A DNA stretch of 64,000 bases from Escherichia coli (GCF_013122565.1 NZ_CP053258.1), one strand, 5' to 3'. Shown: positions 38,274 through 38,646, counted from the stretch's first letter. Notes: generated by a model from the letters alone, not told the origin. A program made the numbers and translations.

Positions 38274-38283
38274 TGCGTAAAAT

Positions 38284-38320
38284 GCCGGATGCGGCGCGCC
38301 AGCATCGCATCCGGTAATAG
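38284..38320. repeat. REP-like palindrome
   Basis: GCCGGATGCGGCGCGCCAGCATCGCATCCGG directly after the ettA stop. Confidence 0.5.
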
Positions 38321-38328
38321 TTAAATGA

Positions 38329-38613
38329 TTAATGGGAGGCAAGTTCCCGGAAAAAGGCAGGATTTTCTTTAATTGTGGCAAGTACTTTTGCAGCCAATCC
38401 CGTAGGATTTCTTCGCTTCGATTCCCAGCTTTTAATGGTATCCACACTGGTTCCCAGAGCTTTTGCCATCTCACTTTGCGAAACGTTGAGTTGCTCACGA
38501 ATAGCTTTAACATCCGCAATTTCGTAGCGGGTCACCCGTGCAGGTTCTTTTAAACCTTGTTTAATCTCGACAGCCTCTTCCAGAGAGGTTTTCAACTCAT
38601 CAAAAAAACTCAT
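38329..38613 (-). CDS. XRE-family HTH DNA-binding protein (MqsA/HigA antitoxin-like C-terminal fold), not expected at this position
   Basis: 94 aa from the MSFFDELK Met (GGTGAGG RBS), 27 nt downstream of the nadR stop. HTH signature ..NVSQSEMAKALGTSVDTIKSWESKRRNPTGLAAKVLATIKENPAFF.. As I recall, K-12 has only about 50 bp between nadR and ettA. Confidence 0.65.
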   Translation of the reverse strand: MSFFDELKTSLEEAVEIKQGLKEPARVTRYEIADVKAIREQLNVSQSEMAKALGTSVDTIKSWESKRRNPTGLAAKVLATIKENPAFFRELASH

Positions 38614-38646
38614 TTTATACCTCACCTTTGAGCAGTTTCGTCACGG

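Follow-up and report, generated by a model that had tools for sequence, protein, structure and literature searches.

The window analyzed here, 64,000 nucleotides of an Escherichia coli genome (NZ_CP053258.1), contains two convergent genes, ettA (36606-38273, plus strand; identified from the list of open reading frames and the annotation of homologous loci) and nadR (38647-39900, minus strand, with its stop codon at 38647-38649; identified from the list of open reading frames). The two genes enclose an interval of 373 bp at 38274-38646, the length given in a preliminary description of this DNA. The encoded NadR protein is 100% identical to annotated NadR, and its listed frame begins a few codons upstream of the annotated 410-residue protein. 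As was also described, the interval is nearly filled by one minus-strand gene, here called nadS (38329-38613), which runs from an ATG at 38613 to a stop codon at 38329-38331 and encodes 94 amino acids plus the stop. A mechanical list of reading frames also contained an alternative GTG start at 38625, which would give a protein of 98 amino acids. The ATG at 38613 was preferred because the NadS family profile (NF041265) aligns over residues 1-94 of 94 from the ATG and because homologues begin there. The good ribosome-binding site claimed for the gene was confirmed as a Shine-Dalgarno sequence, AAAGGTGAGGTATAAAATG, located 5' of the ATG. The distance from the nadR stop codon to the nadS ATG had been put at 27 nt and measures 33 nt (38614-38646). 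Three further mechanical reading frames overlap the locus (37749-38519 on the minus strand, 38332-38553 and 38375-38527 on the plus strand); these are antisense to ettA or nadS and are unsupported as genes. The gene order across the window is E. coli-like (thrABC ... slt-ettA-nadS-nadR-radA).

A palindrome of the REP type was located at 38283-38315, between the stop codons of nadS and ettA. This is the palindrome that had been noted at the ettA-proximal edge, and its arms of 9+9 nt occupy 38285-38293 and 38306-38314. The predicted RNA hairpin has a free energy of -20.9 kcal/mol (z = -2.75). Nine copies of the core GCCGGATGCGGCG are present in the window, where 0.21 would be expected, and the palindrome was for this reason identified as a REP element. 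An Rfam scan of positions 38000-39000 matched no family; Rfam has no family of the REP type. It probably serves as the 3' hairpin for the two convergent transcripts, that from the nadS side and that of ettA.

Family assignment of NadS

The nadS product is identical to RefSeq protein WP_000007436.1, a 'NadS family protein' annotated nadS. It scored 182.6 bits with the NCBIfam equivalog profile of the NadS family (NF041265; cut-off 60), and its residues 1-94 aligned with profile positions 1-94. The helix-turn-helix (HTH) that had been read from the sequence was recovered by profile search (Pfam HTH_3, PF01381, E = 6.1e-10, residues 35-79). The protein is laid out as an N-terminal segment, residues 1 to about 32, and a C-terminal XRE-type HTH at about residues 33-91. 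Conservation across 52 homologues is strong in residues 1-32, and residues 33-91 matched residues 42-100 of HigA-2 (5jaa_A) in a phmmer search of the PDB (E = 2.2e-6). Based upon the NF041265, HTH_3, and 5jaa matches, the gene was assigned as that of a HigA2-type antitoxin. An AlphaFold model predicted from the 52 homologues was of low confidence and, given its mean pLDDT of 66, was used solely for the secondary-structure layout and for a Foldseek search. The model contains a helix at residues 3-19, a low-confidence linker at residues 20-34, and five C-terminal helices from residue 35. Foldseek placed HigA2 chains at ranks 1-8 for this low-confidence model, with weak E-values (2.6e-3).

The protein had been described as carrying an MqsA/HigA-like HTH. 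The HigA part of this description stands, with HigA2 as the nearest characterized relative, and the MqsA part does not extend beyond the generic XRE HTH. MqsA (YgiT) shares with NadS a C-terminal XRE-type HTH of weak similarity (PF15731, E = 6.1e-4). Membership in the MqsA family was rejected: the score with the TIGR03830 profile was 38 bits, below the cut-off of 61.8, and only its C-terminal HTH part (profile positions 67-126) was matched. The zinc domain of MqsA could be excluded as well, insofar as NadS has no cysteine and so no CxxC zinc ribbon. The partner toxins also differ, that of NadS being of the RelE type (PF06296) and not MqsR. A search with the PADLOC defense-system profiles returned generic HTH matches only.

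In the HigB2-HigA2 system of Vibrio cholerae (PDB 5JAA, 5J9I, and 8A0X; PMC5416850, PMC11006873), a disordered N-terminal segment of HigA2 folds onto HigB2 and neutralizes it with picomolar affinity, and the C-terminal part is an HTH (PMC5416850). Through this HTH the protein dimerizes and binds its operator, an inverted repeat (TGTACGC-N5-GCGTACA) overlapping the promoter (PMC5416850, PMC11006873). NadS resembles HigA2 in size (94 and 104 amino acids, respectively) and in its arrangement of an N-terminal segment followed by a C-terminal HTH. The modules are also alike in their inverted, toxin-first gene order and in having, upstream of the toxin gene, a palindrome built on TGTAC half-sites, which in E. 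coli is a candidate operator. The differences are that the HTH domains share only about 30% identity and that the N-terminal segment of NadS has no detectable sequence match in HigA2. By analogy with HigA2, residues 1 to about 32 are presumed to be the toxin-neutralizing part of NadS, and the helix and low-confidence linker modeled there would be compatible with a segment that folds on the toxin. The window further differs from the HigBA2 locus in that toxin, promoter, and operator are all missing from it.

NadS homologues encoded at 80 loci from other species (69-98% identity) were examined for their neighbors. A full or nearly full-length toxin homologue lies directly upstream at about 62 of these loci; partial toxin matches were seen at 8 and none at 10. 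Both nadR and ettA are adjacent at only one of the 80, an Escherichia locus. Since adjacency to nadR is confined to Escherichia, the name NadS reflects the position of the gene in E. coli only. The NadS family is a mobile antitoxin family. Relatives of NadS in phage records were distant ones only, with less than 40% identity.

The toxin gene and the deletion junction

No toxin-sized open reading frame accompanies nadS in the 373-bp interval, as had been stated, and apart from a remnant of nine codons no toxin homologue was found within the 64-kb window. At the same chromosomal site, a gene for a RelE/ParE-family toxin lies between nadR and nadS in 674 of 5,426 complete E. coli genomes, in all 674 as a single copy and always on the chromosome. 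This toxin of 110 amino acids, WP_000513551.1 in E. coli, matched the Pfam RelE family (PF06296, E = 5.9e-10) and, among PDB entries, HigB-2 of V. cholerae (E = 7.5e-17). Its gene ends 1 bp before the nadS ATG, and in some of the toxin-bearing alleles the nadS DNA is 100% identical to that of the window. The intact module is ordered as a promoter with two GTAC-N3-GTAC palindromes, the toxin gene, and nadS. The pair has been named 'parE-3/yiaG-2 (TA30)' in adherent-invasive E. coli (PMC7232551). The window and this nadR-ettA islet of B2-type and pathogenic E. coli share the locus and the antitoxin, WP_000007436.1, and the nadS DNA of the window is 100% identical over 344 bp to the alleles of ST131-type strains and of SE15. 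The window differs from TA30 in lacking 395 bp of the toxin gene and promoter. K-12 is treated in that report simply as lacking the module, and the intact orphan state is not described there (PMC7232551).

In comparison with toxin-bearing alleles, the missing 395 bp comprise the promoter, the two GTAC-N3-GTAC palindromes, and all but the last nine codons of the toxin gene. Alignments with five loci (L001, L002, L003, L004, and L005) placed the deletion junction at 38644-38646, where CGG on the plus strand stands in place of the 395 bp. All toxin-less E. coli alleles that were inspected have the same junction. The remnant of the toxin gene, eight codons and the stop (ending in TKLLKGEV), occupies 38618-38644 on the minus strand and was identified by tblastn, by the alignment with L001, and by translation of the toxin gene; in the tblastn search of the E. 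coli toxin, residues 102-110 matched with 8/9 identity. The Shine-Dalgarno sequence of nadS (GGTGAGG) sits within the remnant. With the stretch of toxin gene and promoter gone, nadS therefore now begins 33 nt past the nadR stop codon with its own ribosome-binding site. The proposal that the gene is an orphan antitoxin or a remnant of a toxin-antitoxin pair was borne out both by the genomes in which a toxin gene separates nadR from an identical nadS and by the retention of the last nine toxin codons.

A complete type II module, with the genes of toxin and antitoxin side by side in one operon, is not present in the window. Likewise, HigA2-type antitoxin genes lie directly downstream of a PF06296 toxin gene, an arrangement that is absent from the window and present at the same locus in the 674 genomes. 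Because the toxin gene of the window has been reduced to nine codons, the family assignment of NadS rests on orthology and not on the context within the window.

A GTAC-N3-GTAC palindrome was found 29-55 nt upstream of the toxin start codon in 46 of 52 related loci from many genera (among L008-L084). It often takes the form TGTAC...GTACA and is sometimes present in two copies about 21 bp apart. The promoter of the E. coli module contains two such palindromes, GTACTTAGTAC and GTACAATGTAC. The half-site spacing of the palindrome differs from that of the HigA2 operator, TGTACGC-N5-GCGTACA. The palindrome is likely a candidate operator of the NadS/HigA2 sub-family, to which NadS would bind. Within the 64-kb window GTAC-N3-GTAC was not found, against 0.30 occurrences expected by chance. 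Six loci from Enterobacter, Lelliottia, and related genera (L046, L047, L049, L053, L059, and L062) have no GTAC palindrome, and in these the end of the toxin match lies 65-88 nt from nadS, compared with the usual 1-4 nt, which suggests a variant architecture or a different C-terminus of the toxin.

In type II systems the toxin is expected to be lost first, since loss of the antitoxin first would be lethal. An independent and different deletion of the toxin gene was found in Escherichia sp. MOD1-EC7003, where 34 toxin codons are kept. In Cedecea the toxin gene is internally deleted, and orphan nadS genes or degenerate toxin genes were seen in other genera. The wrecked toxin loci of Cedecea and MOD1-EC7003 indicate that loss of the toxin with retention of the antitoxin recurs.

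A single base in the nadS Shine-Dalgarno sequence varies among alleles. At position 38624 the window has T, like the toxin-bearing alleles that were checked (L001, L105, and L107). The same base is C (GGCGAGG) in all other toxin-less alleles seen, including the independently deleted one of Escherichia sp. MOD1-EC7003. This difference may reflect linkage or an altered translation of nadS following loss of the toxin.

States of the locus in E. coli and the mosaic around nadS

The interval was matched at least in part by 4,962 of the 5,426 complete E. coli genomes, and full-length nadS was present in 729 of these. Four states could be distinguished by rough counts over the 5,426 genomes: the intact toxin-nadS pair in 674 genomes (12.4%), intact nadS without the toxin, which is the state of the window, in 56 (1.0%), truncated nadS in about 4,240 (78%), and no nadS, for example with an interval of 120 bp, in about 460 (8.5%). 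The 56 genomes are those with a single full-length match to a query that toxin-bearing alleles cover only to 88%. They include IAI39 and CE10, and nadS is annotated in 56 of 56. An intact orphan nadS was thus already present and annotated in E. coli and is not a new system. Two of the toxin-less full-length alleles were inspected and encode the same protein despite synonymous differences; this sameness could reflect selection rather than neutral persistence.

The interval in K-12 had been put at about 50 bp. In K-12 strain J53 it is 307 bp, which is also the published figure for K-12 (PMC7232551), and it contains a truncated nadS of 55 codons. The locus had on that account been regarded as unusual in comparison with K-12 and most E. 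coli, a view that was not sustained: a decayed copy of the same gene lies there in K-12 and in most E. coli. The first 31 or so residues encoded by J53 nadS (L002 positions 1781-1948; compare 38520-38613 in the window) match the window protein. From there on, REP/BIME sequence, which encodes the tail, has taken the place of the 3' two-thirds of the gene and with it of the entire HTH. K-12 NadS (55 amino acids in the PGAP annotation; PMC12350097) thus shares with the window copy its position, the 33-nt junction, the toxin remnant, and the first 31 or so residues, and differs in that the window copy is complete. The segment retained in K-12 is just that which would neutralize the toxin by analogy with HigA2, with the DNA-binding domain gone.

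A simple scan for promoters and terminators detected no sigma-70-like promoter for nadS and nothing terminator-like between nadR and nadS, a weak negative result for a scan that could miss a weak or non-sigma-70 promoter inside nadR. The sole strong hairpin was the REP element 3' of nadS. From this arrangement of the sequence, nadS is probably read through from nadR, and co-transcription of the two is plausible. K-12 nadS has been detected as translated in a genome-wide reporter screen, PIRT-Seq, and has been listed among the small proteins co-conserved with nadR (PMC12350097). Its 33-nt junction and ribosome-binding site are those of the window except at two bases. Because translation was detected for a gene so nearly alike in these elements, read-through from nadR is supported indirectly.

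The allele of the window has a mosaic surrounding. Mismatch maps and segment identities against the toxin-bearing locus L001 (strain 2020CK-00188) delimited a tract of 631 bp at 38175-38805, which, apart from the toxin indel, contains no mismatch at 38175-38673 and one mismatch at 38674-38805. The adjoining parts of ettA and nadR differ from L001 by 3-5%. The ettA and nadR genes of the window are in fact 3-5% divergent from those of every E. coli locus compared, with differences that are almost all synonymous, and the best complete E. coli genome reached 98.0-99.3% identity over three segments (20000-24000, 35000-38273, and 38647-41330). From these sequence comparisons, the lineage of the window seems to be poorly represented among complete genomes. 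The NadR and Slt proteins are identical to common alleles. The strain nearest by flanking sequence, EC2641, has a decayed nadS only. Given the near identity of the tract to L001, the divergence of its flanks, and the decayed nadS of EC2641, the 631-bp tract looks to have been imported by recombination.

The junction in the tract, TCGTCA-CGG-TTATC, is that of all toxin-less alleles of E. coli. The bases flanking it, within 20 bp on one side and 6 bp on the other, are of the toxin-bearing type, unlike those of every toxin-less allele inspected. The combination of the toxin-less junction with toxin-type flanking bases was absent from the 5,426 complete E. coli genomes. One ancient deletion does not fit this haplotype and was rejected as the full history of the allele. 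The mosaic may have arisen by descent from a toxin-less donor outside the sampled genomes, by conversion over a very short tract, or through a recurrent deletion.

Interpretation of the orphan antitoxin gene

We consider it quite probable that nadS is the antitoxin gene of a HigB2/HigA2-type type II module between nadR and ettA, and that the module has lost its toxin and stands as an intermediate of decay. In the mechanism proposed, nadS would have no promoter of its own and would be transcribed as the tail of the nadR mRNA, ending at the REP hairpin. NadS would be, as a homologue of V. cholerae HigA2, a dimeric XRE HTH repressor whose N-terminal segment folds onto the toxin and neutralizes it. 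Without the toxin and the operator, the protein would be left with no target of its own. The decay would pass from the intact pair to the intact orphan antitoxin of the window, then to the truncated, REP-overrun antitoxin of K-12, and finally to nothing. The result is mainly a correction, in that the interval, rather than being an unusual insertion when set against K-12, represents one stage of a polymorphic decay, in a family whose name is already in RefSeq. It also provides a natural series of four stages at one chromosomal site (pair, orphan, truncated, nothing) in which the death of a module may be studied, and this series lends itself to asking whether an orphan antitoxin gives protection from plasmid addiction.

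On the arrival of a homologous module, NadS could still act on it in trans. A reading built on retention for that purpose, which we regard as rather unlikely, holds that the orphan gene has been kept by selection as an anti-addiction or immunity 'vaccine' which, expressed from the nadR transcript, would neutralize the toxins and repress the operons of HigB2/NadS modules on incoming conjugative plasmids such as those of the IncN type. Toxin homologues were found on 889 plasmids, of which Klebsiella contributed 99, Salmonella 46, and Escherichia 34. One conjugative IncN plasmid of E. coli carries a pair whose toxin, WP_032242302.1, and NadS are 78% and 81% identical to the chromosomal proteins, respectively, with residues 1-32 highly conserved and with the same GTACATTGTAC palindrome upstream. 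Cross-neutralization is plausible because the plasmid pair is this close to the chromosomal proteins and shares the palindrome. Orphan NadS also recurs in several genera. The chromosomal CcdA of Erwinia chrysanthemi is likewise an antitoxin with toxin-bearing homologues on conjugative plasmids; for CcdA anti-addiction has been established, and it has been proposed for orphan antitoxins generally (PMC7354431), whereas for NadS it is a possibility. Against selection of this kind, only 11 plasmid-borne copies of the toxin were found among the 5,426 complete E. coli genomes at distant-blastn sensitivity, the intact orphan is rare (56 genomes, 1%), and the gene has decayed in most E. coli. Ratios of dN/dS were 0.03-0.18 for orphan genes compared with a median of 0.058 for paired ones; these values overlap and cannot separate the hypotheses, as most of the divergence across genera probably predates toxin loss and there are too few substitutions within E. 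coli. If selection for anti-addiction were at work, it would have favored an intact copy and would be reflected in the exchange of the 631-bp nadS tract among distant lineages of E. coli, and a host could lose such plasmids without being killed.

It appears very unlikely that nadS has instead been domesticated as a host regulator that acts with nadR to control NAD-related or other chromosomal genes. Such a role would agree with the location of nadS on the same strand as nadR, at a spacing of 33 nt with no terminator between them, and with the translation of K-12 nadS and its co-conservation with nadR (PMC12350097). However, the adjacency to nadR is confined to Escherichia, and homologues elsewhere lie almost always behind a toxin gene at unrelated loci. 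No copy of the likely operator motif occurs anywhere in the 64 kb, be it upstream of nadR or of the genes around it; K-12 NadS has lost its whole DNA-binding domain, and the name of the gene is positional only. Decay after loss of the toxin remains our preferred reading over such a role.

A split system, in which the cognate toxin gene would have been relocated to another site of the genome, with nadS remaining an essential antidote, has precedents in other bacteria (PMC10790755) and is left room by the 64 kb of the source genome examined, yet it appears extremely improbable: the window holds no toxin homologue beyond the nine-codon remnant, the toxin gene was found solely at the nadR-ettA locus and once per genome in the 674 genomes, a distant search added 8 genomes with plasmid copies, and the 56 orphan genomes can generally be taken to have no relocated toxin because the toxin in complete genomes was found only at this locus.

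Two individual alleles showed features of their own. The HS-02 locus (L085, about positions 1200-1600) was considered as an intermediate of decay and was dropped; its toxin region contains long T/A homopolymer runs and frameshifts and is most likely a sequencing or assembly artifact. In strain CFSAN061771 (L004, positions 1-1326), an IS1397 element of the IS3 family lies in the REP element adjoining the nadS stop codon, and the start codon of nadS in this allele is TTG and not ATG.
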